Below, one piece after another: positions 618 to 63,274 of a stretch of DNA of 64,000 nt. Both the position numbers and the translations under genes were made by a program. The stretch covers positions 47,267-111,266 of the forward strand of contig JBDRBE010000001.1 of NCBI GenBank assembly GCA_043823085.1, in the 5' to 3' direction. The notes below the pieces were generated by a model that was not told the DNA's origin, did not search any database, and saw only the letters and a list, made by a program, of their open reading frames with translations. Position 1 is the stretch's first letter. The number at the start of each line of letters is the position of its first letter. Source of the stretch: Candidatus Levyibacteriota bacterium (lineage in GTDB: Bacteria; Patescibacteriota; Microgenomatia; Levybacterales; UBA12049).

Positions 618-2594
618 CTAATTCGCAAGCTTTATAACTTTACTAACAATATGTTTTGCGCTGATTTGGGCATAAGCCAAGAGCTCTTCTGTGCTGCCCG
701 AGCGGGATATTTTAGGAACTGCCATTTTTAAAACTTTTGCACTACTTTCGGCCATTGCCTCTAAAACAAAATCACCTAAGCCTCCATGCTCGTAATGATC
801 TTCAACAGTGATAATTATTGGTTTTTTTGTTTCATTGGCACATTGTTTTATAGTTTTCTTATCAATTGGTTTAATACTATAACAATCTACAACTCTAATA
901 AAAATTCCTTTCTTTTTAAGCTCTTCATAAGCTTTTAACGCTTCAAAAACAGTGATGCCGCAACAAACAACAGTAAGAGTATCTTTTTTCGAACTTTTGA
1001 TAATTTTTGATCCGCCAATTAAAAATTTTTCGGTTGAATTATAAATTACAGATGTTTTAGGACGAAGTGTTCGAAAATAAGAAATACCAATATGTGAAAC
1101 CAAAAGCGGTAAAATTTTAGCAGTTGAAACTGCATCGCTTGGCTGAAAAATTAAAGACCCGGGAATAGTGCCAAACATGGCAATATCTTCAAGACCCATT
1201 TGAGACGGTCCGTCTTCGCCAATTGAAACTCCGGCATGCGAACCGCAAAACTTAATGTTAGCCTGCGAGATTCCCGCCATTCTAATTTGATCAAAAGCGC
1301 GGGTTAAAAAAGCGGCAAAAGTCGAAACAAAAGGAATTTTTTTCATTCTCGATAAGCCAACTGCAACTCCTACCATATTCTGCTCGGCAATAAAACATTC
1401 TATAAAACGCTCCGGATGATTTTTTTTGAAGATTTCCGAATATGTTGAATTTTTTGTGTCGCCGTCCAAGGCATAAATAAAAGGATTATTATTCCCAAGC
1501 TCTGATAATACGTGTCCATAAACCTCACGTGTTGCAATCTTATCACCAATTTTGTATGAAAGGCTTAAGCCGCGGGGAGGCACAAAATTTTCGCTGTTCG
1601 CATCTTGTCGAGCGCCGTTGACTTGATTAACAACTTGAGATCCTTCGCGAGACAACTGCGGAACAAGAAAATTTTCGTGCCGACCTAAGCGGCTTTTCCT
1701 ATTTAAATCAAACCTTAAACTATCGTCCGTTTTACGTAATTCCAAAAGCGCTTTCTCCAACTCATCTTTTTTAAGCGGTTTTCCATGCCATCCTTCTTTT
1801 CCTTCCAAAAATGAAACTCCTTTTCCTTTTTTAGTTTTAGCAATAATAACAAATGGTTTTTTATTCTTATTATTAGTTGCAAGTTTAAAAGCCTTAATAA
1901 TTTCTTCAAAATTATGTCCGTCAATTGCCAGTGTTTCAAAACCAAAAGAAGAAAATCTATTAAGATACTCGTTAACCTTATGATTAAACATTGTTTCCTG
2001 ACTTTGTCCCAAACCATTAACATCCACAATTGCGATTAAATTATCTAAATGGTAATAAGAAGAAAAATTTGCCGCCTCCCAAATATTTCCTTCCGCCGTC
2101 TCCCCATCTCCCATTAGAACATAAACTTTTGGTAAACTCTTAGTTCTTGATTCTGAATTTTTAATTCCCGCGCGTTGCGCATACGCTATTCCTGCGCCTA
2201 CTGATAAACCTTGTCCCAGTGACCCAGTTGCTGCTTCTGTGAAGGGGAAACGCGGAGTTGGATGACCTTCAAGCCGACTTTCAAATTTCCTAAGTGTTTT
2301 TAATTCTTCTAAAGGCAATCCTCCGCTTAAAGCAAAAAGTGTATAAAGGAGCGGCGCCGCATGACCTTTTGATAGAACAAACCTGTCATTGTTTAAATTA
2401 TGAGGATTTTTTAGATCGTAAGTAAAAAATTTATCAAACATAACAGTTGCGATATCTGCAGATGATAAACATGAGGTTGGATGCCCGGATCCTGCTTCAC
2501 TTGTTGCAATTAAAGACCATTTACGAATAAGCGCTGCTTTCTTTTCAAGATCCGAAGAGTCTACCATGATGCTATTGTAATGGTAATCGTTCAT
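618..2594 (-). CDS. tkt: transketolase
   Basis: 658 aa. TPP-binding signature SGHPTSCLSSADI, GDGETAEGNIWEA, and the central Pyr domain (ATREVYG...GDTKNS). Full-length single-chain transketolase architecture. Confidence 0.9.
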   Translation of the reverse strand: MNDYHYNSIMVDSSDLEKKAALIRKWSLIATSEAGSGHPTSCLSSADIATVMFDKFFTYDLKNPHNLNNDRFVLSKGHAAPLLYTLFALSGGLPLEELKTLRKFESRLEGHPTPRFPFTEAATGSLGQGLSVGAGIAYAQRAGIKNSESRTKSLPKVYVLMGDGETAEGNIWEAANFSSYYHLDNLIAIVDVNGLGQSQETMFNHKVNEYLNRFSSFGFETLAIDGHNFEEIIKAFKLATNNKNKKPFVIIAKTKKGKGVSFLEGKEGWHGKPLKKDELEKALLELRKTDDSLRFDLNRKSRLGRHENFLVPQLSREGSQVVNQVNGARQDANSENFVPPRGLSLSYKIGDKIATREVYGHVLSELGNNNPFIYALDGDTKNSTYSEIFKKNHPERFIECFIAEQNMVGVAVGLSRMKKIPFVSTFAAFLTRAFDQIRMAGISQANIKFCGSHAGVSIGEDGPSQMGLEDIAMFGTIPGSLIFQPSDAVSTAKILPLLVSHIGISYFRTLRPKTSVIYNSTEKFLIGGSKIIKSSKKDTLTVVCCGITVFEALKAYEELKKKGIFIRVVDCYSIKPIDKKTIKQCANETKKPIIITVEDHYEHGGLGDFVLEAMAESSAKVLKMAVPKISRSGSTEELLAYAQISAKHIVSKVIKLAN

Positions 2595-8984: not shown

Positions 8985-9569
8985 TTATCTTAATCCTATT
9001 GCAGTTTGAAAAGTTTTACTTTCAGGCCCGGATTTTTTGATTGTTTTACTAGTTAAAGTAAAAGCTACTTTAATGGTGCTCTTCCCTTCTGTTTGCCCAA
9101 GTTGCATGAAGCTTAAATTTGATACACTTGTATCATTGCCATTTAATTGATCTGCTCCTAACATCAGATTACCATTGTTTAAGCTATAAACATAATCATC
9201 GCTATTTATAGTAATTGTTAAAGTTTGCGACTCGACTCCATAAGAAAGAGGAACCTTAACATCACTTGCTCTCCCAATGTCATAATTTAATCTTGAAAAA
9301 AGATATTTGCCGTCTTCCTGAACGCCGGACGTTGCTTCTGTATCAAGCTGTACATCTAAAATTGCCGTAAAAAGCTGAACCAAAACCAAAAGAAGCATCG
9401 AAAAAATACCAAGATAAATTAGAAGCTCAATAAGAGTAAACCCCGCACCTACGACTTTACGGCTCACCCCGCTGACTCGCCTCGCTTCGCGGACATTGAT
9501 TAACTCTTGTTTTAACGAACAGATATTGTGGTGCGGGGTAAATCCTTTTATTTTTTTGATTTTTAACAT
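8985..9569 (-). CDS. prepilin/pseudopilin with a 34-codon in-frame insertion in the leader (see mobile_element 9440-9539)
   Basis: ...KVVGAG|FTLIELLIYLGIFSMLLLVLVQLF is the class III signal. The leader is about 40 aa instead of the usual 6-25. Confidence 0.7.
   Translation of the reverse strand: MLKIKKIKGFTPHHNICSLKQELINVREARRVSGVSRKVVGAGFTLIELLIYLGIFSMLLLVLVQLFTAILDVQLDTEATSGVQEDGKYLFSRLNYDIGRASDVKVPLSYGVESQTLTITINSDDYVYSLNNGNLMLGADQLNGNDTSVSNLSFMQLGQTEGKSTIKVAFTLTSKTIKKSGPESKTFQTAIGLR
9440..9539. mobile_element. MITE-like insertion (about 100 bp) with perfect 10-bp terminal inverted repeats ACCCCGCACC / GGTGCGGGGT
   Basis: 9440-9449 accccgcacc is the exact reverse complement of 9530-9539 ggtgcggggt. 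The interior is GC-rich (ctcgcctcgcttcgcgg) in an AT-rich gene. Coding-strand direct repeats gGaTTTAC / gGgTTTAC flank it. Removing the 102 nt between them restores KG|FTLIELL. Confidence 0.45.
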
Positions 9570-29811: not shown

Positions 29812-30933
29812 ATGCTCATTTTAGGAATTGAAACTTCTTGCGACGAAACATCAGCGGCAATTGTGGAAGACGGAACAAAAGTTCTTTCTAATGTTATTTC
29901 TTCATCTCTTCCTCTTCACGTTAAAACAGGCGGAATAATTCCGGAAGTTGCCGCAAGACAACAAATTAAATATATTATTCCTGCAATCAATCAAGCTTTA
30001 TTAGATGCATTTGACGTGGGAAGTGAGAAGTGGGATCTTGATGTTTTGAAATCAAGAAATCTTGACGTCAAGAATTCAAGATCAAAAATATCTCACCTCT
30101 CACGTCTCATTTCTAAAATCGATGCCATTGCCGTCACTGTTGGTCCGGGGCTAATTGGTTCACTTCTTGTCGGCGTTGAAACAGCCAAAACTTTAGCCTA
30201 TGTTTGGAAAAAACCGATAATACCGGTCAATCATTTAATCGGCCACATCTACGCTAACTTCGTTAGCGAAATTTCAAATTTCAAATTTCAAATTTCAAAT
30301 TCGTCAATTACTTTCCCCGCTCTTGTTTTAATCGTTTCCGGCGGACATACTGATTTACTATTGATGAAAAATCATGAAAAATTAAAGTGGCTGGGCGGAA
30401 CCCGTGACGACGCAGCCGGCGAAGCATTTGATAAAATCGCAAGACTTCTTGGCCTTCCTTACCCCGGGGGACCAATAATTGAACAAAAAGCAAAAAACGG
30501 AAACCCTAAAGCTTTTAATTTTCCAAGGCCGATGATTGATTCAAATGATTTTGATTTTAGTTTCAGCGGTTTAAAAACAGCAGTTTTACGCGAAACCAAA
30601 ACAATTAAACAATTAAGCAATGAAACAATCGCTAATCTTTCCGCTTCTACCCAACAAGCCATTGTTGACATTTTAGTTGCCAAGACTTTAAAAGCCGCAA
30701 AAGAATATAATGTTAAATCAATTCTTCTTTCCGGTGGCGTCTCGGCGAATGATAAATTACGAGAACAATTTCAACTAGATGCTAGACGCTACTTACTAGA
30801 TGCTAATATTTTTTATCCCGATAAAAAATATTGTACAGATAATGCTGCTATGATCGCCTCGGCCGCATTCTTCAACTACAAACCCCTAGACTGGAGAAAA
30901 ATTACCGCTAATCCTGAACTTTACTTTATTTAA
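29812..30933 (+). CDS. tsaD: tRNA N6-adenosine threonylcarbamoyltransferase TsaD
   Basis: MLILGIETSCDETSAAIV N-terminus and the Kae1/TsaD fold. Contains the in-frame tandem 7-mer repeat (30271-30300) encoding NFKFQISN. Confidence 0.9.
   Translation: MLILGIETSCDETSAAIVEDGTKVLSNVISSSLPLHVKTGGIIPEVAARQQIKYIIPAINQALLDAFDVGSEKWDLDVLKSRNLDVKNSRSKISHLSRLISKIDAIAVTVGPGLIGSLLVGVETAKTLAYVWKKPIIPVNHLIGHIYANFVSEISNFKFQISNSSITFPALVLIVSGGHTDLLLMKNHEKLKWLGGTRDDAAGEAFDKIARLLGLPYPGGPIIEQKAKNGNPKAFNFPRPMIDSNDFDFSFSGLKTAVLRETKTIKQLSNETIANLSASTQQAIVDILVAKTLKAAKEYNVKSILLSGGVSANDKLREQFQLDARRYLLDANIFYPDKKYCTDNAAMIASAAFFNYKPLDWRKITANPELYFI
30271..30300. repeat. tandem heptanucleotide repeat (ATTTCAA)x4 plus 2 nt, in-frame inside tsaD
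   Basis: Exact 7-mer copies at 30271, 30278, 30285 and 30292. 30 nt in total, so the frame is preserved. Confidence 0.8.
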
Positions 30934-31011
30934 CCGCTTGCCCTTCCGAAGCCTTGGCGAAGGAGGACCAACCCCGAATTATATTTTGAATAGCTTAGAG
31001 TATTAACGTTG

Positions 31012-31830
31012 TTATTTTTTCCTTAGAATTTTTTCTACCGTAATAGATATGACTTCTAATATCTCCTCCATCGTATTTTTCCCACCCGATAAATGATCCC
31101 ATAATTCCGAAGCTATAAGCACTTCGTCTGGACTAAAAAATTTCTTGAATTCTATTAAATAACTAAAGAATCTCTCTTTATCATATCCTGTTGGGCTATC
31201 CGATGTTGGATCAAAAGGAAACCCAATATAATATCTTGTCTCCTTTTCTGGATTTTTATTCTTAAATGCAGCCTTTGCATGTAAAATCTTCTGTTTTTCT
31301 CCTCTTCCTTCACCCGAGTTAGGCCTAACTGATTTAAGTTCAATTCCTTCTATAAATATCTCTGTTTCTATGTAATTATCTACAGTAAATCCTAAAGCAT
31401 CCACTTCCGGCTCAGATTTTCTAAAATTGAATATTAACTTATTTTCTCTGTCTAAATTAGGCGCTATTCCATCTCTGCGTTTTAGTTCCCTAATAATATT
31501 ATCTATATCTTCCGCTTGGCTTTTTTTAATCCTTAATGTAAACGCACCGGTAAATTCTCTTTTATAGCCTCCTGAAATTATGTGTGACAGGTCTTCAAAG
31601 CTATTACCCAAAGATGTGCTTAAACCATGCAGCCAACTAGAAATAGCAAATAAATAAGGCGTTGGTATATTTATATTCCTGAATTGCTCTTCAAATCTTT
31701 TTATAATCAGTTCATGAAAAGGAGCATTTCTATTCTTATGATCAATTTTGGGAAAGTTTTCAGCTCTGGAAGCTAGTATCTTTTTTATGACCTCCGAGAT
31801 TCTTTCCTTCTTTTCTACATTTAACGCCAT
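31012..31830 (-). CDS. putative type II restriction endonuclease (partner of the adjacent methyltransferase)
   Basis: 272-aa ORF 7 nt downstream of the DNA methyltransferase gene and apparently co-oriented with it. No recognisable housekeeping domain. Assigned by context only. Confidence 0.4.
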   Translation of the reverse strand: MALNVEKKERISEVIKKILASRAENFPKIDHKNRNAPFHELIIKRFEEQFRNINIPTPYLFAISSWLHGLSTSLGNSFEDLSHIISGGYKREFTGAFTLRIKKSQAEDIDNIIRELKRRDGIAPNLDRENKLIFNFRKSEPEVDALGFTVDNYIETEIFIEGIELKSVRPNSGEGRGEKQKILHAKAAFKNKNPEKETRYYIGFPFDPTSDSPTGYDKERFFSYLIEFKKFFSPDEVLIASELWDHLSGGKNTMEEILEVISITVEKILRKK

Positions 31831-31837
31831 ATGCTTA

Positions 31838-33436
31838 TTAAGCCTCTTTTAAATGAAATATTATTTCTGAATAGGGAGATTTATCTCTTTCCGTTCTATT
31901 TAAAACCGGCCTTTTATACATATTAACTATTTTCATGCCTGATTTATAGGCAATACCAGGGTACAGATTATATTTGTCATTTGCAACTATAAAAACATTA
32001 TAACCCTCCACCAAGTATTTTCTTGAATTTAGCAACACTTTAGAAATATCCTCTACATAGGATTGTCTCGCCTCAAGGCCTTGCCCTTTGTATAACGGCC
32101 CTATCTCTAAATCATCTTTTCGTTTAAAACCAAAAAGATCATATGCGTAAGCATGCTGTTCATGATAATCTATTTGTCCAACATACGGCGGTGAAGTAAA
32201 TATTCCTTTTATTTTTTTCTTTAATAATAACTTATAAAAATTAGGTCTAATTTTTCTAATTTCATCCTTAATATTTACCGTTCTCGAATCACCGCAAATT
32301 ATGGCTGAAAAGGCATCAGTTTTTAATTTACTAAATTCTCTTAGCCGAAATAGCGTATCTAAAGAATACCTAATGAACATTTTATTTATTGAAAAAATTG
32401 GCTTGCATATTTTCATGTGTTTATAGCAATAATAAGTTGTCAATTGAGGTGCTTTAAGCGTTGCTAAATCAGAGTGCGTTGTTGCCCTGCATGAACGAAT
32501 TGTCCTGCTTAATATGATTGCTAATATTTTTTTATTTTTTTTATTTTCTATTTTCTTTATTCGTTCGAAAGCGTAATTAAACTCTTTTCGAACATTATCA
32601 GTATACCATTTGTCTAAAAAATTATTTTTTCCGATCTGTTCTAATTTAACTTTATATTTTTGAATTAATGCATTGTAAATTTTCAAAAACTCTTTTTCTT
32701 TATCGCTTATATAATCTCTTCCTATTTCGTTTCTTGCTAATTTATACTTGAAATCTGGGCTTGGAAAATATTTATGGTTAAATTCATTAATCGCTTCTGT
32801 GAGTTCCCCATCAAAAGCTTTAATTTTATTATCTGATTCATAGGAAGTTACTAATTCCATTAAGGTTTTTATTTCTTTTTCTAAAATGTTTAAATCATAA
32901 TTTAATAATTTAACCTCTGCTATTAAACAATTAAAACGCGATATCTCAATTCCCACAGAGTGAATCCCTAATTCGTTAGCTTGAATTAGAGTTGTGCCAG
33001 AACCAACAAATGGATCCAATACGATGTCTCCTTTATTGAAATAAATCTTCTTCTTAAAATCATCCGTATGTGTATCGAGAAAATAATTAACTAGCTGCGG
33101 AATAAATTTTCCCTTATATGGGTGCAGTCTGTGAACATGTTTAGTCGTATCCTTTTCCCTATAATTATCAAAGGATAATGTCCAATTTAAATCTTGCCCT
33201 AGCCTCTTTTTCCAATCTAATTCTTTTGTCCATTTGGATGAAATGTAATATTTTTTTAAATCATCAACATCTATTAGAGTAGAACCATTATTGTTGAATT
33301 TATGAACTTTACCATATTGGACTAAATAGGAAATATTTAAGACACTAATTTCCTTGTTGAGTAATTTACTGGCTAGCTCACTAGCCTCTTTTATGGAAAT
33401 TAACTGCTGCGGCATAAATTTATTATAACAACTCAA
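31838..33436 (-). CDS. DNA methyltransferase (N4-cytosine or N6-adenine, N-4/N-6 MTase family)
   Basis: 532 aa. Motif I DPFVGSGTT (AdoMet binding) near residue 140, and motif IV SPPY near residue 415. SPPY is more typical of m4C enzymes. Confidence 0.85.
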   Translation of the reverse strand: MSCYNKFMPQQLISIKEASELASKLLNKEISVLNISYLVQYGKVHKFNNNGSTLIDVDDLKKYYISSKWTKELDWKKRLGQDLNWTLSFDNYREKDTTKHVHRLHPYKGKFIPQLVNYFLDTHTDDFKKKIYFNKGDIVLDPFVGSGTTLIQANELGIHSVGIEISRFNCLIAEVKLLNYDLNILEKEIKTLMELVTSYESDNKIKAFDGELTEAINEFNHKYFPSPDFKYKLARNEIGRDYISDKEKEFLKIYNALIQKYKVKLEQIGKNNFLDKWYTDNVRKEFNYAFERIKKIENKKNKKILAIILSRTIRSCRATTHSDLATLKAPQLTTYYCYKHMKICKPIFSINKMFIRYSLDTLFRLREFSKLKTDAFSAIICGDSRTVNIKDEIRKIRPNFYKLLLKKKIKGIFTSPPYVGQIDYHEQHAYAYDLFGFKRKDDLEIGPLYKGQGLEARQSYVEDISKVLLNSRKYLVEGYNVFIVANDKYNLYPGIAYKSGMKIVNMYKRPVLNRTERDKSPYSEIIFHLKEA

Positions 33437-34540: not shown

Positions 34541-37500
34541 ATGTCAGATGTTAGAATTTTAAATGTTGAACAAAGCAAAGCGGTTAAACACGAAGTTGGT
34601 CCTCTTTTAATTATCGCCGGAGCAGGATCCGGAAAAACTACTGTTATTACCGAGCGAATAAAACATTTAATTCTTAAAAAGAATATTCTTCCTCAAAATA
34701 TTCTTGCTCTTACTTTTACCGAAAAAGCGGCACGCGAAATGGAAGAACGCGTTGATATTGCCATGCCTTACGGCTACACTCAAATGTGGATTTCTACTTT
34801 CCATGCTTTTTGCGACCGGATTTTGCGAAACGAAGCAATTCATATCGGGCTTAATCCTTCTTATAAATTAACAACAGAGGCCGAATCTGTAATGTTTTTG
34901 CGCCTTAATTTATTTAAATTTGACTTTAATTATTTTCGTCCGCTTGGCAACCCCAATAAATTTTTAGAAGGACTTTTGCAGCATTTTTCAAGACTAAAAG
35001 ACGAAGACATTAACCCTTTGCAATACCTTGAATATGCAAAGGGAATTTTAAATGTCAAATTTCAAATATCAAATAAAAAATTAGACGCTAAACGCTATCC
35101 GCTAGACGCTGACGACGATGAGGTTAAAAAGAACATTGAACTTGCAAATGCCTATAAAACCTACGAAGATTTGAAAGTAAAGGAGGGCATTATGGATTTT
35201 TCCGATCTTATATCCAACACCTTAAAACTTTTTCGGCAAAGAAAAAATATTTTAAAAAATTACCAAGAACAATTCAAATATATTCTGGTTGATGAATTTC
35301 AGGATACCAACTTTGCCCAAAACGAATTAGCAATTTTACTTTCGGGAAGTAAGAAAAACATTACGGTTGTTGGCGACGACGATCAGGCAATTTACCGCTG
35401 GAGAGGAGCGGCAATTTCAAACATTATTCAATTTCGAAAACATTTTCCAGATGCAAAAGTTATAACTCTGATTAAAAATTACCGCTCGACAAAAGAAATC
35501 CTTGATAAGTCTTATGCTCTTATTCAAAATAATAATCCCGATAGATTAGAAGTAAAAGAAAAAGTAAATAAAAAACTTGTTTCAATGAGGAAATTAAAAG
35601 GAGAACAAATTGAATTTCTATTTGCTCCAAGGGTTGAAGACGAAGCAGATCTTGTTGCTAAAAAAATTGAAGAACTCACTACGAGCCACGCGCCATCTGC
35701 AAATTACCACTTTCACGATATTGCCATTCTTGTTCGTGCTAACGACCATTCTCAAGCTTTTACAAGAAGTTTGGAAAGACATAATATCCCTTTCCAATTT
35801 TTAGGCCCCGGTCAGCTTTTTAAAAAAGAAGAAATAAAAGATTTAATTGCCTATTTAAAAGTTCTTTATAATTTCGAAGACTCCGCATCGCTTTATCGCA
35901 TAATGAATATGCCAATTTTCAAATTTGAAGCAATAGAAATTGCCACTCTTTTAAATTATTCAAAAAGAAAAAACCTCGGTCTTTTTAAGACATTAGAAGT
36001 TGCCGCGCAAAAAGATCCGCCAGCTGGCGGAGAAATTTCTTTCAAAGAAAAAACTAAGGAAAAAATAAAACATATTTTTGAAATGATAAACAAACATTTA
36101 AAAAGGGTCCCCAAAGACACTGCTGGTCAAATCCTTTATTATTTTCTACAAGATACCGGTCTTCTCAAAGAAAGCTTGAATATCAAATCACAAAGTGATG
36201 AAAAAAAATATCAAAACATTGCGAGGTTCTTTGAGAAACTAAAAGCTTTTGAAGCAGATCATGAAGATGCTTCTATTTTTGCTGTAGTTGACTGGATTGA
36301 TCTTTCAATGCAAATGGGCGAAAGTCCGCTTGCTCAAAATTCGGACTGGCAGGATATTAATGCCGTTAATATTCTAACAATTCATTCAAGTAAAGGACTT
36401 GAATTTCCAATTGTTTTTTTAGTTAATCTTGTCACGCAAAGATTTCCAACCAGAGACAGAAAAGAACAAATTCCAATCCCGCAAGAGCTAATTAAAGAAA
36501 TTCTGCCGGAGGGAGATTATCACTTAGAAGAAGAGCGCCGTTTATTTTATGTTGGCGCAACCCGTGCAAGAGATTTACTTTTTTTAACAGCGGCAAATTT
36601 TTACGGCGAAGGAAAAAGAGAAAGAAAAATTTCTCCCTTTGTTTATGAAATGCTGGGAGAAAAAACAGTTGAAAATCAAACACTGAAACAATCAAACACT
36701 GAAACAATCAAACAATTATCTCTTCTTGCATGGTCAACACCAAAACAAGAAATTCCAGCTTCCAGCTTCCAGCTTCCAGCTTCGCCACCCCTCACTTATC
36801 TTTCTTACTCGCAGATTCAAACTTTTGATATCTGCCCCCTGCATTACAAACTTAAATATATTCTAAAAATCCCGACTCCGCCTTCTTGTGCCCAAAGCTT
36901 TGGAACAAGTATACACAGCGCTCTTCGCGATCTTTATCAAAATTTAATTGGAGGATTAAAAATTTCCGAAAAAGAGCTTTTAAGGATTTTAGAAAACGAT
37001 TGGATAAACGAAGGCTATCAAAGTAAAGCGCACGAAGAAAAAGCATACGAGGGCGCAAAAAAAATAATTTTAAATTATTTTGAAAATAATTTTAACCCAA
37101 AAAAAATTCCGGCTGCTCTTGAAACTCCTTTTAAATTCAGTTTAAGAAGACAAGAAGTAAATTCACCAAGCTTAATGGTTGGCGGGAGGATTGATAGGAT
37201 TGATGAAATTGATAATAATAAAATTGAAATTATTGATTATAAAACCGGCAATAATGTCCCCGATGAAAAAAAACTGGCGGATGATTGGCAATTAACCTTT
37301 TATGCTTTGGCTGCAACAGAAGTTAGAGATAATTTATTAAATAAGAAACCCGAGAACGTTACTCTTTCTCTTTATTATTTGGAACCGAATATAAAACTTA
37401 CAACTATTAGAACAAGAGAACAATTGGAAGAGGCAAAAAAGAAAATTTTGGAAAAAGCAGATGAAATTGCAAACAGTGAATTTAAATGCAGTCAAAACAA

Positions 37501-38060: not shown

Positions 38061-38480
38061 CCTAGGAAGAAGGATCGCTACCCGCCAATATTTGCGCCAT
38101 GAGCCGTGTACGAATAGTACTGAAAAGGCGAATGGCAAAAATTAGGCGGGAGGAAAGTCCAGACAGGTGTAAAGCCCGGGACGGAGCGTAAACTCCGATT
38201 AGCAATAACTAGTGTTTTGATGCTTTACCCCGCTCAGCGGGGTGAACCCACATGTGGCATCAAAAACAAATTCTGAATTGACAGAATTTGAGAGCAACAG
38301 AGACGAGTGGGAGTGAAACGAGCAATCCTACCGGCTGCAACCTCCGAATGGTACGTCAAAACTTGCTTTACAGGAGTACCGAAGTTTGAGGGCACCGCGT
38401 CAAACGCGGCAGGGGTGACTAAATATCACAACTGAGATAGATTGCGATTAGAACAGAATCTGGCTTATTCTCTTCCTAGG
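38061..38480 (+). ncRNA. rnpB: RNase P RNA, bacterial type
   Basis: Conserved P4 5' strand GGAGGAAAGUCC at 38149-38160 and the 3' strand ACAGAAUCUGGCUUA at 38452-38466, with compensatory changes (AGUCCAGA / UCUGGCUU). GAGUGAAACGAG and GUAAACUCCG motifs are present. P1 pairs cctaggaaga (38061-70) with tcttcctagg (38471-80). A T-run follows. Confidence 0.85.
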
Positions 38481-41435: not shown

Positions 41436-41942
41436 TTATACTCCATTTTCCAACACCTCGTCAATGCTTTGTTTAATCGTCTCCCAATTAAATCCTTTGC
41501 TTGCCAAAAACCGCCCCAGTTTCTGATAAATCTCAAGTTTTGGCAGAGTTTGATATTTTTTAATCTTTTTTCTTATTAGCTTTTTCGCCATTTCTGTTTC
41601 ATTGAAAATTGAAAATTGAAAATTGAAAATTTCATCAATGATATCGTCCGCAATTCCCTTTCCCTTCAGTTCAATTTTTATCAGCCGCATCGACCGCGGT
41701 TTAAAATTTGTTCTACTCTCAATCCACCACCTGGTAAACTCCGCATCATCAAGAAATTTATGTTCTTTAAGCTTACTAATTATTTTTTCGATTATTTCTT
41801 CCGGAGCCTTTTTGCTTTTCAACTTTTCTCTTATTTCTTGCTCTGACCGAGGACGGTAGGAAAGAAACTTAAGGGCACTATTATATTCGCGTTCGAATAA
41901 ATGCGAACGCTTATTAATGTTTCGCATTATAATATTTCTCAA
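41436..41942 (-). CDS. recX: recombination regulator RecX
   Basis: 168 aa. Three-repeat helical RecX pattern (LSYRPRSEQEIREKL ... FLDDAEF). Contains the in-frame tandem 7-mer repeat 41602-41630. Confidence 0.8.
   Translation of the reverse strand: MRNIIMRNINKRSHLFEREYNSALKFLSYRPRSEQEIREKLKSKKAPEEIIEKIISKLKEHKFLDDAEFTRWWIESRTNFKPRSMRLIKIELKGKGIADDIIDEIFNFQFSIFNETEMAKKLIRKKIKKYQTLPKLEIYQKLGRFLASKGFNWETIKQSIDEVLENGV
41602..41630. repeat. tandem heptanucleotide (TTGAAAA)x4 in-frame inside recX
   Basis: Four exact copies. Encodes NFQFSIFN on the minus strand. Confidence 0.8.
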
Positions 41943-54176: not shown

Positions 54177-54559
54177 AATTCCAAACCTCCTTCTCTTGCG
54201 CCTTGTGCAAGAGATTTAATTCTACCATGATAAATATAACCTCCTCTGTCAAAAACAACTTTCTTAATTTTTTTCTCCAATGCTTTTTTTGCCAAAACCA
54301 TCCCCAGATTTTTAGCCTGAATTGATTTTTGTCCCCCTTGCCTGCCGGCAGGCCCGCCTGCCGAGCGGGCAGGCTGGTTTTTTTCTTCCAAGTGACTTTC
54401 TGTCATTCCTAATATTGTTTTTCCTTCTTCGTCATTAATTAACTGAACGTAAATGGCTTTATTTGACCTAAAAACAGAAAGCCTTGGCCTTTCTTTGGTC
54501 CCCCTGACTTTACTTCTTACTCTGGATTGTCTTTTTATTTTATTTTTGTTCTTATTCAT
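54173..54559 (-). CDS. rplR: 50S ribosomal protein L18 with a GC-rich in-frame insertion
   Basis: [18 protein letters not shown] ... [28 protein letters not shown]. It carries an extra [15 protein letters not shown] segment encoded by palindromic GC-rich DNA at 54338-54380. Confidence 0.9.
54338..54380. repeat. GC-rich palindromic in-frame insert within rplR (cctgccggcagg ... gcctgccgagcgggcaggc)
   Basis: 12-nt perfect palindrome cctgccggcagg (54341-54352), followed by the hairpin gcctgcc-gagcg-ggcaggc. It sits in an otherwise AT-rich gene. Confidence 0.6.
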
Positions 54560-55735: not shown

Positions 55736-56308
55736 TTATTTTGCGAATGGCATGCCCAATATTTTCAAAAGTGCGCTGCCTTCCTCATTGTTTTTAGCCG
55801 TTGTGACAATAACCACTTCAAGTCCTTGTATTTTATCAACTTTCGAAGGATCAATTTCAGGGAAAACAGTATACTCATTAAAACCAAGTGAGTAATTACC
55901 GCGTCCGTCAAAACTCTTTTGGCTTACGCCATGAAAATCTCTAAGTCTTGGAAGCACAATATTTGTCAATTTTTCGAAAAAAGAATACATTCTTTTTCCC
56001 CTTATTGTTACTGTCAATCCAATCTCGTCTCCTTGTCTTAATTTAAAAGAAGAAATTGCCTTTTTTGCCTTTGTGACTTTTGGTTTTTGACCTGAAAGGG
56101 CAGCTAGAATTACAGACGCTTTCTCAACATTCTTTTTATCGGAGAGTGCATCTTTTACGCCCAAATTAAGCACAATTTTTGATAGCTTGGGTAGAGCCAT
56201 CAAATTTTTTGCACCAAGTTCTTCTTTTAATTTTGTCCGCCAGTCGGCGGATTCTGAATTAAATCTTGTTTGTAAAGCACTCATATTGTTTGTTTGCATT
56301 TCTTGCAA
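55736..56308 (-). CDS. rplE: 50S ribosomal protein L5
   Basis: NLMALPKLSKIVLNLGV ... ITIVTTAK. Confidence 0.9.
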   Translation of the reverse strand: MQEMQTNNMSALQTRFNSESADWRTKLKEELGAKNLMALPKLSKIVLNLGVKDALSDKKNVEKASVILAALSGQKPKVTKAKKAISSFKLRQGDEIGLTVTIRGKRMYSFFEKLTNIVLPRLRDFHGVSQKSFDGRGNYSLGFNEYTVFPEIDPSKVDKIQGLEVVIVTTAKNNEEGSALLKILGMPFAK

Positions 56309-57942: not shown

Positions 57943-58594
57943 TTATTTCTCCTCCGGTCTATTTATCCAAACTTTTACTCCAATATAGCCTTTTTTAGTT
58001 AAAGCCGGAACACTGGCAAAACTAATATGCTCGCGGATCGTTGAAAGCGGAACCTTACCGATATGTAATTTTTCCCTGCGGCTGATTTCCGCTCCGGCTA
58101 TTCTCCCCGATAGTAAAATTCTTACTCCTTTTGCTCCTGAACTCATAACCCTTTCTCCGGCCGAAAACAGTGCACGTTTATAAGGCATTCTCTTAATCAA
58201 CTGCTCGGAAATGTTCTTTGCAACCAAGTATGCGTCGAGATTTGGTTCTTTAATTGGTTCAACTTTAATATCTAGTTTTGGCAAATTCTTTGTATTTTTT
58301 TTTAGTTTTATTTAAAATAGCAACAAGGAATTTTTTTAAATCATCAAGTCCTGTTCCGCCTCTGCCAATTACGATTCCAGGCCTTGAAACATAAATTATC
58401 AATTTTAAACTATTTATTGATCTTTCAATTTCTACCCTGGCAATGCCGGCAATTCTTAATTTTTCCATTAAAGCTTTTCGAAGAGTATAATCTTCAAAAA
58501 GAACATCTTTATATCTTTTACTGTCAAACCAACGGCTTTCCCAGTTATAAATTGTTCCAAGTCTTAAAACTTGCGGATTAACTTTTTGCCCCAC
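57943..58594 (-). CDS. rpsC: 30S ribosomal protein S3, interrupted by a frameshift at an A9 homopolymer (two ORFs: 58265-58594 N-part from a GTG start, 57943-58284 C-part)
   Basis: The N-part reads [13 protein letters not shown]...GIVIGRGG (KH domain) and ends 8 codons after the A9 run at 58295-58303. The C-part ([19 protein letters not shown]...[20 protein letters not shown]...YIGVKVWI) is in the +1 frame. Deleting one A joins them into a normal S3. Confidence 0.85.
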
Positions 58595-58595
58595 A

Positions 58596-58896
58596 GAACC
58601 TCCTTCCAGCCCGCCCCGCTTCGCTTGGCGAGGCCGGGGTCGGTAATAAACCAATGCTACAAATAAACAAATAATTTAATTTGCGGACAACCCGAAGCGG
58701 GTGACGCGAGGAAGTTTGGCGCGGGGAGGCGTAAAATTTTCGCAGTTCGCATTTCGAGCTTACAACTTTTGATGGAAATTTCAAAAGACTCCAGGGTTTT
58801 ATTCTGTTTCGAATTAAATCCAAACTGTTGCGAGTTGCGGAACAAGAAAACTTTTGCGCCGACCTAAGCGCCTTCTGCAACTTTTGACAGACACAA
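58596..58896. repeat. roughly 300-nt GC-rich mosaic insert between rpsC and rplV (hairpin 58610-58643; 20-mer shared with the rplC-rplD insert at 58692-58711; transketolase-homologous block 58716-58872)
   Basis: Normally rplV and rpsC abut. The sequence cccgaagcgggtgacgcgag is identical to 61265-61284. The 58721-58759 and 58823-58872 segments match transketolase 1572-1613 and 1651-1700 at roughly 85% identity, including identical runs of 15 and 13 nt. Confidence 0.6.
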
Positions 58897-59241
58897 TTAT
58901 TTCTTTTCATTTTTTTCCTCCAATACTATTCTTATATTACTTGATCTTTTTTTAAAAGGATGAACCCTGCCTCTGGTTGAGGGTTTAAACCTTTTAAGAG
59001 CCGGGCCGCCTGAAACATTAATACTTTTAATAATTAAATTCTCTTTTTGCAGCTTTGCATTATTAATTGCATTTGCCAAAGCGCTTTTTAAAGTTTTTAA
59101 AAGCGAAGTTGCCGCTCTTTTATTTGCCAGACTTAAAGCATTTATTGCTTGCTCAATTGACATATTGCGCACCATATCGGCAAGTAAACTCACCTTTCTT
59201 GGACTTATTTTAACTGATTTGCTTTCTGCTTTTATTTCCAT
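58897..59241 (-). CDS. rplV: 50S ribosomal protein L22
   Basis: KISPRKVSLLADMVRNMSIEQAINAL. Confidence 0.9.
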   Translation of the reverse strand: MEIKAESKSVKISPRKVSLLADMVRNMSIEQAINALSLANKRAATSLLKTLKSALANAINNAKLQKENLIIKSINVSGGPALKRFKPSTRGRVHPFKKRSSNIRIVLEEKNEKK

Positions 59242-60600: not shown

Positions 60601-61242
60601 TTATTTCTCCTTTAAAAAATAATCCTTGGCTTCCTCTAATGCCTCTTTGGCAAAAATAAGCACTTTATTATTTAAAATTTGATAAGTATTAATTGTATTT
60701 ACCAATATAAAGCTTGTATTTTCAATATTTCTTACAGCCCTCATAATATTTTCCGCGTCTTTTGGCAAAACCAGCATAATTTTTTTACCAGAAAGTTCCA
60801 AGTTTTTTAAAGTGTTTGCCATATTTTTTGTTTTTGGCTCCAGGGTTTTTAGCCCTTTTATAATTTTTATTTCTTGGTCTTTTAATTTTGCAGAAAGTGC
60901 CGAAAATAAAGCCGATCTTTTCATTTTTTTAGAGAGTTTTAGCGAATAATCTCTTGGTTTTGGTCCAAAAGCAAGTCCTCCCTTAACAAAAATCGGAGCT
61001 CGTATTGATCCATGTCTTGCCCGGCCTGTTCCTTTTTGCTTATATATTTTTCGACTTGATCCTTTGACCTCACTTCTGGTTTTGGTTGAAGCTGTTCCTG
61101 TTCTCTGATTTGCTAAATAAACTCTGACTGCTTGACTTATTAATACTTTATTTACTTTTACACCAAACATTTCTTTTGGTAATTCCATTGATTCAACAAC
61201 TTTTCCTTTTAAATCGTAAACGTCAACTTTTAAACTACCCAT
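60601..61242 (-). CDS. rplD: 50S ribosomal protein L4
   Basis: The true start is MGSLKVDVYDLKGK... at 61242. The listed ORF extends to 61431 only because the GC-rich insert has no in-frame stop. Confidence 0.85.
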   Translation of the reverse strand: MGSLKVDVYDLKGKVVESMELPKEMFGVKVNKVLISQAVRVYLANQRTGTASTKTRSEVKGSSRKIYKQKGTGRARHGSIRAPIFVKGGLAFGPKPRDYSLKLSKKMKRSALFSALSAKLKDQEIKIIKGLKTLEPKTKNMANTLKNLELSGKKIMLVLPKDAENIMRAVRNIENTSFILVNTINTYQILNNKVLIFAKEALEEAKDYFLKEK

Positions 61243-61402
61243 CTTGCTTCTCAAATCGCGGGGAGCCCGAAGCGGGTGACGCGAGCCAGAGACCTTGCTG
61301 GCACGCAGTCCGCCAGTTGGCGGATTAGCCGTACGAGTACCAGCGAGATGGCGAGCGGCAGGACCCGCGAGGGCGACCTTTGATTTTTGATTTTTGATTT
61401 TT
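61243..61402. repeat. 160-nt GC-rich insert (about 65% GC) between rplC and rplD, with internal palindromes
   Basis: It contains cccgaagcgggtgacgcgag (61265-61284, identical to 58692-58711), the palindrome ccgccagttggcgg, inverted ends tcgcgggg...cccgcga, and then (GATTTTT)x3. Confidence 0.6.
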
Positions 61403-62182
61403 TTAACTGGCATTTTCATCCTCTTTACCATCCGTAGCTTTAGCGGAGGATGGCTTTACCTCCTTGCCCTCTGAAGCTTTAGCGAAAGAGGGCTTTTTTT
61501 CTGGCTCTTTTGATTCTTCAATTAAAGCTTCTTTGTAAAGCGGTACGAACTTTTTATCTTCCCCGACTTTTTTAATTGAAACAAGGCTATTTTTTGGCCC
61601 AGGAACCAATCCTTTTATTAAAACTAAATTGTCTAAGACATCCGCTACAATTTGGTTTTTGATTGTCACATTTTCATGCCCCATTCTCCCTGCCATTCTT
61701 TTTCCTTTGTAAACTCTTCCCGGTGTAGTGGTTTGACCGATTGACCCCGGCGCTCTTTCTCTGTCTGACTGACCGTGAGTTCTTGGTCCGCCTTTAAAAT
61801 GATGTCTTTTAACAACGCCTGCGTAACCTTTTCCTTTGGAAACGCCTGAAACATCAACAATATCTCCCGGCTTTAATACATCTTGAGCATTGATAGTCTC
61901 TCCAAGTTTTGGAGAATCGGAGATTTCGTTTACTCTTACTTCGCGCAAAAAATGAGGAGCAACTTTTAAGTTTGCTCCTTTGATATGCCCTTGCAATGCT
62001 TTTGACGGATGCTTTTTAGTTCCAAGACCAATTTGAAGGCTGTTATAGCCATTTTTATCTTTATTCTTAACCATGGCAACAACATTACCGGAAACATTAA
62101 TTTCCGTCACAGGTATTCTTGTTCCATCTTCCAAAAACTTTTGTGTTTGTTTTTGTTTTATTCCAAAAATTTGATTAATCAT
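61403..62182 (-). CDS. rplC: 50S ribosomal protein L3 (with Lys/Glu-rich C-terminal extension)
   Basis: MINQIFGIKQKQTQKF ... GVSKGKGYAGVVKRHHF. Confidence 0.9.
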   Translation of the reverse strand: MINQIFGIKQKQTQKFLEDGTRIPVTEINVSGNVVAMVKNKDKNGYNSLQIGLGTKKHPSKALQGHIKGANLKVAPHFLREVRVNEISDSPKLGETINAQDVLKPGDIVDVSGVSKGKGYAGVVKRHHFKGGPRTHGQSDRERAPGSIGQTTTPGRVYKGKRMAGRMGHENVTIKNQIVADVLDNLVLIKGLVPGPKNSLVSIKKVGEDKKFVPLYKEALIEESKEPEKKPSFAKASEGKEVKPSSAKATDGKEDENAS

Positions 62183-62393: not shown

Positions 62394-62888
62394 TTATGTG
62401 TATGGAGCTAATAGAGCGCGGACAAACTCTAGTCTGGGAAAATTCGGATTCTTATTTAAAAACTCCCGCATGAGAACAATTTCTTCATTCTCCAAAATAT
62501 CACCTACCATTTCAGGAACTTTTTGCCCACTTTTTTTAATGACATTAACAAATTGCGAGCCTCCATTAGGCACAGCACGCATACCAAAAACAATTTTATC
62601 AACAGCCGTTAACATGGCAGCGCCCAAGCACATCACACAAGGTTCGAGTGTTGTATATAATACAAGAGGTCTAGGCGCAGTCCAAACCAAATCTTTTGCT
62701 TTTCGAAGAGTAAGCCATTCTGCATGTACAGTAATAGATTTTGATCGAAGTTGTTGGCTATGTCCTTTTCCAATTAACCGATCATTGGCTACGAGCACCG
62801 AGGCAATTGGTAATTCACCTATCGCCAATGCTCTCTTTGCCTCTTTTAAAGCAAGACGCATCCAGTGTTCATCGCGATTGACTGCCAT
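62394..62888 (-). CDS. CDA-fold nucleoside/nucleotide deaminase (TadA/guanine-deaminase-like) embedded between rpsJ and rplC
   Basis: 164 aa. Zinc ligand motifs HAEWLTL (H-A-E) and EPCVMC (PCxxC). Confidence 0.75.
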   Translation of the reverse strand: MAVNRDEHWMRLALKEAKRALAIGELPIASVLVANDRLIGKGHSQQLRSKSITVHAEWLTLRKAKDLVWTAPRPLVLYTTLEPCVMCLGAAMLTAVDKIVFGMRAVPNGGSQFVNVIKKSGQKVPEMVGDILENEEIVLMREFLNKNPNFPRLEFVRALLAPYT

Positions 62889-62965: not shown

Positions 62966-63274
62966 TCACATTCTTATTTCAACATCAACACCTGCGGGGA
63001 GTTCGAGATGGGTGAGGCTGTCGATAGTTTTATCGGTTGGGGAAATAATATCAATTAGCCTTTTGTGGACTCGCATTTCAAAATGATCGCGGGCATCTTT
63101 ATCAATATATGGAGATTTGTTAATTGCGTAAATGCTTCTTTGGGTTGGAAGAGGTATTGGACCTATAACCTTGGCGCCGGTTCTTATCGCCGTATCTAGA
63201 ATTTGTTGACAGCAAGCGTCAATGACTCTTGCGTCATAACTTTTTAAACGTACTCTAATTCTTCCTTTTGGCAT
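62966..63274 (-). CDS. rpsJ: 30S ribosomal protein S10
   Basis: RIRVRLKSYDARVIDACCQQILDTAIRTGAKVIGPIPLPT. Confidence 0.9.
   Translation of the reverse strand: MPKGRIRVRLKSYDARVIDACCQQILDTAIRTGAKVIGPIPLPTQRSIYAINKSPYIDKDARDHFEMRVHKRLIDIISPTDKTIDSLTHLELPAGVDVEIRM

Follow-up and report, generated by a model that had tools for sequence, protein, structure and literature searches.

A GC-rich hairpin block carried in frame in the L4 gene of a Levyibacteriota bacterium is probably a tolerated palindromic repeat

The window analyzed here is a stretch of 64,000 nt (35.2% GC) from a metagenome-assembled genome (MAG) of Candidatus Levyibacteriota, in the Microgenomates of the candidate phyla radiation (CPR) (GCA_043823085.1, JBDRBE010000001.1, 47,267-111,266). 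According to the open reading frame (ORF) list, its minus strand carries the S10/spc ribosomal-protein cluster, and within it lies a block of 160 nt (61243-61402) whose GC content is 58.8%, rising to 70% in a core (61256-61375) that we call E1. The first-pass annotation had described this block as an insert of roughly 65% GC between the genes for ribosomal proteins L3 (rplC) and L4 (rplD). The block is indeed GC-rich, if less so than that figure, and its placement has to be revised: the GC-rich core falls within the variable extension at the L4 N-terminus, i.e., in the 5' part of rplD. The features of the junction are the following, with no strand assigned where none is given.

61403-62182, minus strand: rplC (L3), with a variable K/E-rich C-terminal tail (ORF list; alignment with the L3 of two relatives' loci, L013 and L014)
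60601-61413, minus strand: rplD (L4), including a 57-codon N-terminal extension typical of the lineage; its ATG (61411-61413) overlaps the rplC stop (61403-61405)
61381-61402, minus strand: heptamer repeat (AAAAATC)3 (repeat proper 61382-61402; (GATTTTT)x3 on the plus strand), read as the L4 codons KKIKNQKSK
about 61256-61375: E1, a 120-nt palindromic element, 70% GC, in frame in the L4 extension and encoding ..LAGPAARHLAGTRTANPPTGGLRASKVSGSRHPLRAPR; defined by GC content, inverted ends, a single long hairpin and the recurrence of its peptide in three other proteins (P0121, P0122 and P0123)
61256-63 and 61364-70: inverted ends of E1, TCGCGGGG / CCCGCGA, read from the sequence
61266-61285: 20-mer CCCGAAGCGGGTGACGCGAG, within the 3' arm of E1 (gene sense), with a second copy in the rplV-rpsC spacer
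61309-61324: apical palindrome TCCGCC-AGTT-GGCGGA (inner CCGCCAGTTGGCGG, 61310-61323), of the pattern TCCGCCNNNNGGCGGA

The position of the block within rplD follows from where L4 starts. The ORF spans 60601-61431 (276 aa), the NCBI annotation of the window L4 (P0001, 270 aa, from a 224-kb contig) uses the ATG at 61411-61413, and a start at the internal ATG would give 213 aa. A protein search with the extended ORF returned thousands of L4 proteins, of which we examined the 120 best, mostly from Levybacteria and Microgenomates and 228-300 aa long as against about 210 aa. Among these 120, every L4 called at full length starts with MP.KK(I/V)K, continues with a K/S/T-rich stretch of 20-100 residues that is highly variable in length and sequence, and then reaches the canonical L4 start (L..DVYD.KGK); no conserved Met aligns with the window's internal ATG in any of them. 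Aligned in this way, the L4 extensions are genuine and basic. We also compared eight fetched loci from relatives (L013-L020, of which L013 and L014 are 21-kb loci): the L4 ATG overlaps or abuts the L3 stop in 8/8, the protein opening with MPVKK.. ahead of a variable extension, and AAGGAGG within the 3' end of L3 precedes it wherever the upstream sequence was read (L013, L014, L016, L018 and L020). The block belongs to the 5' part of rplD because the window has this same start, with AAGAGGA, 5 nt and then ATGCCAGTTAA carrying the L4 ATG. The heptamer tail consists of L4 codons, and the L4 of L014 (P0008) opens with the same heptamer repeat and peptide despite an L4 identity of 58%. L3 and L4 are therefore adjacent as usual, and the 63 extra codons, previously put down to the ORF caller, are no artifact. 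The first-pass annotation had also raised the prospect of a homologous L4 extension matching the translated block. Such an extension is indeed present: the first ~12 codons (MPVKKIKNQKSK, the heptamer tail) agree with it, whereas the GC-rich core is unmatched.

Of the six frames, only that of L4 stays open throughout the block, for which the lack of an in-frame stop had been reported; across the core alone two of six are open. As folded, the block is a single long, imperfect hairpin (-59.1 kcal/mol and z -3.5 on the sense strand, -71.7 kcal/mol and z -4.1 on the plus strand), as is the 120-nt core (-55 to -72 kcal/mol), and together with an insert in the L18 gene described below it forms the strongest local structure of the 64 kb. 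The inverted ends, the inner palindrome and the heptamer tail all lie where they had been reported. The second copy of the 20-mer is present as well, at 58691-58710 rather than 58692-58711: with up to 3 mismatches allowed, the window holds these 2 matches, as opposed to 0 in 100 shuffles. At each site the 20-mer folds into the same small stem-loop, with the flank partly compensating, and the shared stretch is 20 nt only. We considered this stem-loop as a kink-turn and rejected it, since its internal loops (GGGAG/UGA and GACAA/UGA) break the rule of a 3-nt bulge with tandem G.A. A Logan contig (L006, SRR27458547) is identical to the first 124 nt of the block and ends inside the 20-mer, which is the behavior expected at a repeat. 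Exact-protein look-up of the window L4 in its 213, 270 and 276 aa forms gave no match, and that of L3 led to a 2-kb Logan contig only. The 20-mer also occurs in L002 (6030), L008 and L009 (Beijerinckiaceae-like), in a stretch conserved across three alphaproteobacterial contigs and ending in a terminator-like GCGGGCTTTTTTGG; this stretch may be an unrelated small RNA, and we take the match as coincidental.

The E1 peptide recurs in proteins that are unrelated to L4. We translated the core in six frames and searched it against a protein database, with P0001 recovered as a control. The same query matched the C-terminal tail of a 183-aa NUDIX hydrolase (P0121, ATGPAARHLAGARSANPPTGGLRANKASGSRHPSPGGFDG, E 2e-6), in a segment that lies past the NUDIX domain, and a 258-aa pseudouridine synthase (P0122) containing ATGPAARHLVGARSANKRLRASKVSGSRHPSP, a match that is weak alone (E 0.64) and falls within about 30 residues, just before the HRLD motif, that have no counterpart in solved RluD structures. 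A three-segment profile searched against 1.8 billion representatives matched a 58-aa ORF ending in TAGPAARHLAGARSANKPLRASKVSGSRHPL (P0123, E 1.3e-12). The peptide common to the copies is GPAARHLAG.R.AN(PPTGG)LRA.K.SGSRHP, the window L4 version being LAGPAARHLAGTRTANPPTGGLRASKVSGSRHPLRAP, and the reading frame is the same in all four copies. The unit is modular, because the apical PPTGG palindrome is missing from the P0122 and P0123 copies. Given the peptide matches in P0121, P0122 and P0123, at least three protein-coding genes with no relation to one another appear to contain the same ~100-nt unit in frame, which bears out the earlier suggestion of a repeated hairpin-forming family. The weakest match of the element profile, P0124 (207 aa), is made of tandem LSRTLVGAQLAGERGGLIASKLCCYGVC units; we take it to resemble a translated array of repetitive extragenic palindromic (REP) sequences from a high-GC bacterium, in which case it would show one way for palindromic repeats to end up in protein databases.

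At the orthologous sites E1 is missing. A comparison of the L3-L4 junctions of relatives, already proposed in the first-pass annotation, found its arms absent from the L4 5' end in L013-L020; a TCCGCC/GGCGGA stem is also present at the L4 5' end of L013, L017 and L020. GC-rich perfect hairpins number 15 in the window versus 1.85 in shuffles, and 1 versus 0.9 in each of L013 and L014; as the excess is not found in these two loci, the proliferation is specific to this lineage. The hairpins of the window outside E1 include the following.

58595-58896: E2, the composite rplV-rpsC spacer of 302 nt, made of a GC hairpin, the 20-mer stem-loop and a ~155-nt hairpin
58691-58710: second copy of the 20-mer, a local stem-loop
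58718-58875: long hairpin of E2 (~155 nt), arms 58720-58752 and 58836-58870 (repeat comparison, folding)
1571-1691: copy of the E2 hairpin in the transketolase gene (ORF 618-2594, minus strand), arms 1571-1603 and 1657-1691, in frame, in the linker between the enzyme halves
56236-56251: TCCGCC-AGTC-GGCGGA at +33 of the L5 coding sequence ('ESADWRT'), a 3-aa insertion compared with relatives
36016-36031: TCCGCC-AGCT-GGCGGA in a UvrD-like helicase ORF ('DPPAGG'), from a pattern scan
54337-54377: nested GC-rich palindromes in frame in a variable loop of L18 (folding, alignment)

In relatives, rplV and rpsC overlap or lie 9-71 nt apart. The spacer in the window carries a second palindromic element: its ~33-35-nt arms are 91% identical to those in transketolase, with differing interiors, and the corresponding transketolase residues (~288-328) are unmatched in the human enzyme. 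For both the 20-mer and the E2/transketolase element, the reading frame differs between the two places of occurrence. The apical motif TCCGCC-N4-GGCGGA occurs three times in the window (E1 apex, L5 and helicase) where 0 are expected, and E1, the E2 elements, the transketolase insert and the L18 insert all fold as single long hairpins (z -3 to -5.5). When 120 GC-rich islands, taken from the window and from five loci of relatives, were compared all-versus-all by BLAST, most matches were between orthologous coding sequences; the non-orthologous exceptions were the 20-mer, a 17-nt palindrome and a borderline 16-nt match between the E2 hairpin H1 (58609-58645) and L013. The last of these lies at the 5' end of the EF-G gene (fusA; L013 446-495), where GCCCGCCTTTTCTTCGCTAGGCGAGGCTGGG resembles H1 over 16 nt (E 0.025) in the opposite gene-relative orientation.

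A second, smaller hairpin type, R1, also occurs in the window.

61428-61453, minus strand: R1 copy b, CCATCC-tccGCTAAAGCtac-GGATGG, in the L3 tail ('SSAKATDGK'), from hairpin comparison
61467-61492, minus strand: R1 copy a, CCCTCT-ttcGCTAAAGCttc-AGAGGG, in the L3 tail ('PSFAKASEGK'), from hairpin comparison
30937-30970, minus strand: R1-like hairpin TCCTCC-ttcGCCAAGGCttc-GGAAGGG-caagc, in the spacer of two convergent genes (covariance model, 19.7 bits, E about 0.006-0.011)

Copies a and b have identical loops and fully compensated stems. The R1 consensus is YCCNCC-TTCGC(TAAA/CAAG)GCTWC-GGNGGR-CAAG, with the loop GCTAAAGC, and the fourth stem pair is A-U, G-C, C-G or G.U depending on the copy. 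R1 was at first seen only at the L3/L4 junction (nine loci), where it lies at +24 to +60 nt of the L4 coding sequence in L016-L020, with a related form in L015 and a short-loop form in L013. Over seven copies, 97.6% of cells are paired and 4/6 pairs are compensatory, with 0/500 shuffles as good. In pattern scans of IMG/VR, R1 then turned up in about 20 unrelated contigs whose GC content ranges over 34-70%, frequently with several copies each and in both orientations. A covariance model run on all the sequence collected found 38 matches in 27 sources (copies in the window and L015-L038), with 97.5% paired and 5 compensatory pairs. Its translations include SAFAKATADK, PPSLKLRRTS and SYGGQA. R1 has no Rfam family, and neither the hairpin nor its peptide strings were found in the literature searched. 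We conclude that R1 is a widespread REP-like repeat that is not specific to L4. A better account of why R1 recurs at the L4 5' end is that the A-rich heptamer tract is an insertion hotspot, or that a single old insertion was followed by many losses.

Tandem heptamers mark 5' regions, as (AAAAATC)n, (AAATTTC)4 and (GAAAATT)4: they are found in the window (61382-61402, 30269-30296 and 41604-41631), in L014 (10010-10045), and in L022 and L023. In one viral contig R1 is embedded in (CAATATT)n arrays. These observations suggest that heptamer arrays are linked to hairpin insertion. The neighbors of the intergenic R1 copy are a TdeIII-type type II restriction endonuclease and an N4/N6 DNA methylase (31012-33436, minus strand).

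Taken together, our findings indicate that the block is probably a non-autonomous palindromic repeat tolerated in frame within rplD, in the manner of Rickettsia palindromic elements (RPEs), REPs or MITEs (miniature transposable elements with inverted repeats). RPEs measure ~150 bp and occur as in-frame insertions in genes unrelated to one another, whose products then contain them as conserved peptides (Ogata et al., 2000, 2002, via PMC10969869). The likeness extends to palindromes of ~100-150 nt that are GC-rich against an AT-rich reduced genome, lie in frame in unrelated genes including essential ones, lack a transposase of their own and add a conserved peptide to the host protein where it is disordered or lies at the surface. 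E1 likewise forms one long hairpin, is in frame and stop-free in several unrelated genes (the P0122 match being weak) and has arms that are absent from orthologous genes, and sister elements lie in frame in transketolase, L18, L5 and L3. E1 and RPEs differ in that there is no sequence relationship between them, that the phylum is another one (CPR/Levybacteria), that E1 is visibly modular, with an apical palindrome lacking in some copies, and that four copies compare with dozens in the RPE account cited. E1 would thus be at most an RPE analog, as opposed to a member of an RPE family.

REPs and REPINs mobilized with RAYT transposases (PMC3337134, PMC3733652) share with the hairpins described here short GC-rich imperfect palindromes, compensatory stems, clusters and inverted doublets forming larger hairpins, and occurrence in both orientations. 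The best fit is the small R1 hairpin (about 26-33 nt), which is a short palindrome with compensatory stems and many copies. REPs are, however, extragenic by definition and present in hundreds, whereas the copies found here are largely intragenic and in frame (E1, R1 at 61428-61492, and the L5, L18, helicase and transketolase copies all lie inside ORFs) and carry no consistent GTAG/CGTC tag. Bacterial MITEs (ERIC, BOX, Correia and those of Anabaena; PMC10969869) have the same size range, long complementary arms, a non-autonomous nature and occasional in-frame fusions with host ORFs. E1 has inverted ends, TCGCGGGG and CCCGCGA; no target-site duplication was recognized, its termini resting on one DNA copy. 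The GC clusters of yeast mitochondrial DNA are comparable GC-rich palindromic islands. Organelle repetitive hairpin elements (PMC2800124, PMC2670323) similarly form GC-rich palindromic islands in AT-rich compact genomes, including coding regions, with nested insertions. They differ from E1 in residing in organellar rather than bacterial genomes, and the sequences are unrelated.

A repeat of this kind could have arisen as follows. The L4 extension of Levybacteria is fast-evolving and lysine-rich, and E1 (~120 nt) would have been inserted there in frame and without a stop. As a modular unit, made of outer arms, the 20-mer stem-loop module and the apical TCCGCC/GGCGGA palindrome, with copies or fragments elsewhere, it may have spread by copy-and-paste, at present or in the past, through a transposase supplied in trans that recognizes hairpin DNA. 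Landing would favor A-rich tracts, which in an AT-rich genome are the lysine codons of disordered tails. Selection would then remove frame-breaking insertions, so that in-frame, stop-free copies survive in the tails, linkers and loops of essential genes, and E1 would be translated as part of L4 without a function of its own.

Several points weigh against this interpretation. None of 20 window ORFs scanned against Pfam encodes a transposase, RAYT included, and for this reason mobility is something we infer rather than observe. Only four E1-core copies are known, three of them as Logan proteins alone, so that the termini and terminal inverted repeats are putative. Scans of genomes, metagenomes and viral contigs for the exact 20-mer outside the window found unrelated 58-69% GC genomes only, or nothing; viral contig scans with two E1-core 20- to 23-mers and one E2 arm gave 0 matches. 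The nearest L4 is 68% identical, and hence no close relative offers a clean empty site. Translation is assumed to proceed through a hairpin of about -59 kcal/mol, and an internal ATG (61240-61242) is preceded by a weak GAGAAG. Finally, the plus strand of the inserts (1571-1691, 54337-54377, 58595-58896 and 61256-61375), antisense to the host gene, is more stable by 4-15 kcal/mol, which a purely neutral model does not account for. G.T wobbles pile up on one strand of the inserts; mutation bias and an active single-stranded form are candidate causes.

A first alternative, to which we give a small probability, is that E1 and the small hairpins by the L4 start are a cis-regulatory mRNA structure, such as an L4-binding site for autogenous control, enlarged in this lineage. 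In E. coli, the S10 operon is autoregulated by L4, and a structured RNA by a ribosomal-protein start in this operon is what the S10 leader and the Rfam ribosomal-protein leaders have in common with the block. A leader of this type would mimic the rRNA binding site of its protein; the window contains no 23S rRNA. A GC-rich hairpin recurs at +24 to +60 nt of L4 in L013 and L015-L020, two more occupy the L3 tail of the window just ahead of the L4 Shine-Dalgarno sequence, the stems show covariation, and two G.U cases favor the sense strand; the frame of the hairpin varies among genomes, implying that nucleic acid rather than peptide is conserved. We accordingly favored R1 as an L4 autoregulatory site at first, and dropped it in view of its intergenic copy in the window, its presence or absence between sisters, and the dispersed copies found in IMG/VR and with the covariance model. 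A hairpin-type peptide is present in only about 20% of 105 L4 extensions, with sisters such as P0008 and P0026 differing. The large E1 arms are missing at all orthologous sites and present in unrelated genes, R1 is positionally recurrent but sporadic, and the hairpin type is dispersed genome-wide and across phyla. Unlike the leaders, moreover, the block lies within coding sequence, and Rfam contains no family for it or for the rplV-rpsC spacer at gathering score, with chance-level hits only at E<=10. The same results speak against the shared processing or regulatory RNA motif that the first-pass annotation had put forward as its second option.

It is quite improbable that the GC-rich segment is instead a selected peptide module of the L4 extension and other hosts, with the hairpin as a by-product. 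The single reading frame of all four copies and the genuine, basic nature of L4 extensions would fit such a module. With 2/6 core frames open, though, a shared frame is weak evidence, the hosts are unrelated and carry the segment in a tail, a loop or an extension, and both the 20-mer and the E2/transketolase element change frame between sites. The segment is moreover a near-perfect nucleic-acid palindrome of a composition foreign to the genome.

An independent RNA, either a plus-strand antisense small RNA or an RNase processing or stability site in common with the rplV-rpsC spacer, is just as hard to credit. It would explain why the plus strand folds better than the sense strand for every insert and why the 20-mer adopts the same partly compensated stem-loop twice. 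Against this, no Rfam family emerges even at E<=10, the two sites have only 20 nt in common, and the same element family lies inside unrelated coding sequences. That the block is an assembly artifact or chimera, or the 20-mer match mere chance, we consider barely conceivable: the source is a MAG, the Logan contig breaks within the block and a homopolymer frameshift in rpsC suggests an imperfect consensus, but the Logan assembly is identical over the first 124 nt, an essential gene stays in frame through the insert, other assemblies contain related copies and the chance expectation for the 20-mer is 0.00.

If E1 is a tolerated palindromic repeat, as we think probable, it would represent a new family within an already known type of element, in a host where this was not expected; searches of the literature gave us no account of repeats of this kind in CPR/Patescibacteria. 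The usual picture of CPR bacteria is one of streamlined, repeat-poor organisms. This Levybacteria genome nonetheless has in-frame GC-rich palindromic repeats in essential genes (those for L3, L4, L5, L18 and transketolase), which would extend the notion of selfish DNA inside protein-coding genes beyond Rickettsia and offer a concrete source for the fast-evolving ribosomal-protein extensions of the clade. Such elements break short-read assemblies, as at the Logan contig end inside the block, mislead the reading of gene boundaries and composition-based screens for foreign DNA, and yield recurrent spurious or chimeric peptides in protein databases. A more speculative idea, unlikely in our estimate, is that the palindromes are more than tolerated junk: cross-phylum hairpins (R1, and lineage-restricted composites such as E1) that prefer A-rich tracts would be a main source of lineage-specific tails, linkers and extensions in ribosomal and other CPR proteins, some of them co-opted near the L4 start to tune translation. 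Coding palindromes, described as peculiar to Rickettsia, would then be a way in which proteins grow in reduced AT-rich genomes at large, with a hairpin family for which we found no description as the driver.

The remaining genes of the cluster named here, from the ORF list, are as follows.

62966-63274, minus strand: rpsJ
62394-62888, minus strand: tadA-like cytidine/deoxycytidylate deaminase gene, inside the S10 cluster between rpsJ and rplC
between rplD and rplV, minus strand: rplW, rplB and rpsS
58897-59241, minus strand: rplV
from 58594 downwards, minus strand: rpsC

The spacer between the deaminase gene and rplC is 211 nt long, and the content of the S10-L3 interval also varies in relatives. 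rpsC is split in two ORFs (57943-58594) by one extra A in an A9 run (T9 on the plus strand, 58295-58303), and taking out one A yields a 216-aa S3 that aligns colinearly with that of L013; the split is due to a homopolymer consensus error of the MAG or else to a real frameshift.

Two observations concern other parts of the window. A type IV pilin-like ORF (8985-9569, minus strand) is extended upstream through a GC-rich stretch, 'VREARRVSGVSRK' (GC island 9440-9500), which has the GCTTCGC flavor of the repeats and a non-significant fold (z about 0); the true start is probably a GTG giving MSRKVVGAGFTLIELL. A scan of the window at gathering thresholds missed a candidate divergent RNase P RNA of bacterial class A, which a local scan places at 38066-38479 on the plus strand, starting GGAGGAAAGTCC... 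(24 bits versus a gathering score of 100, E 1e-5).

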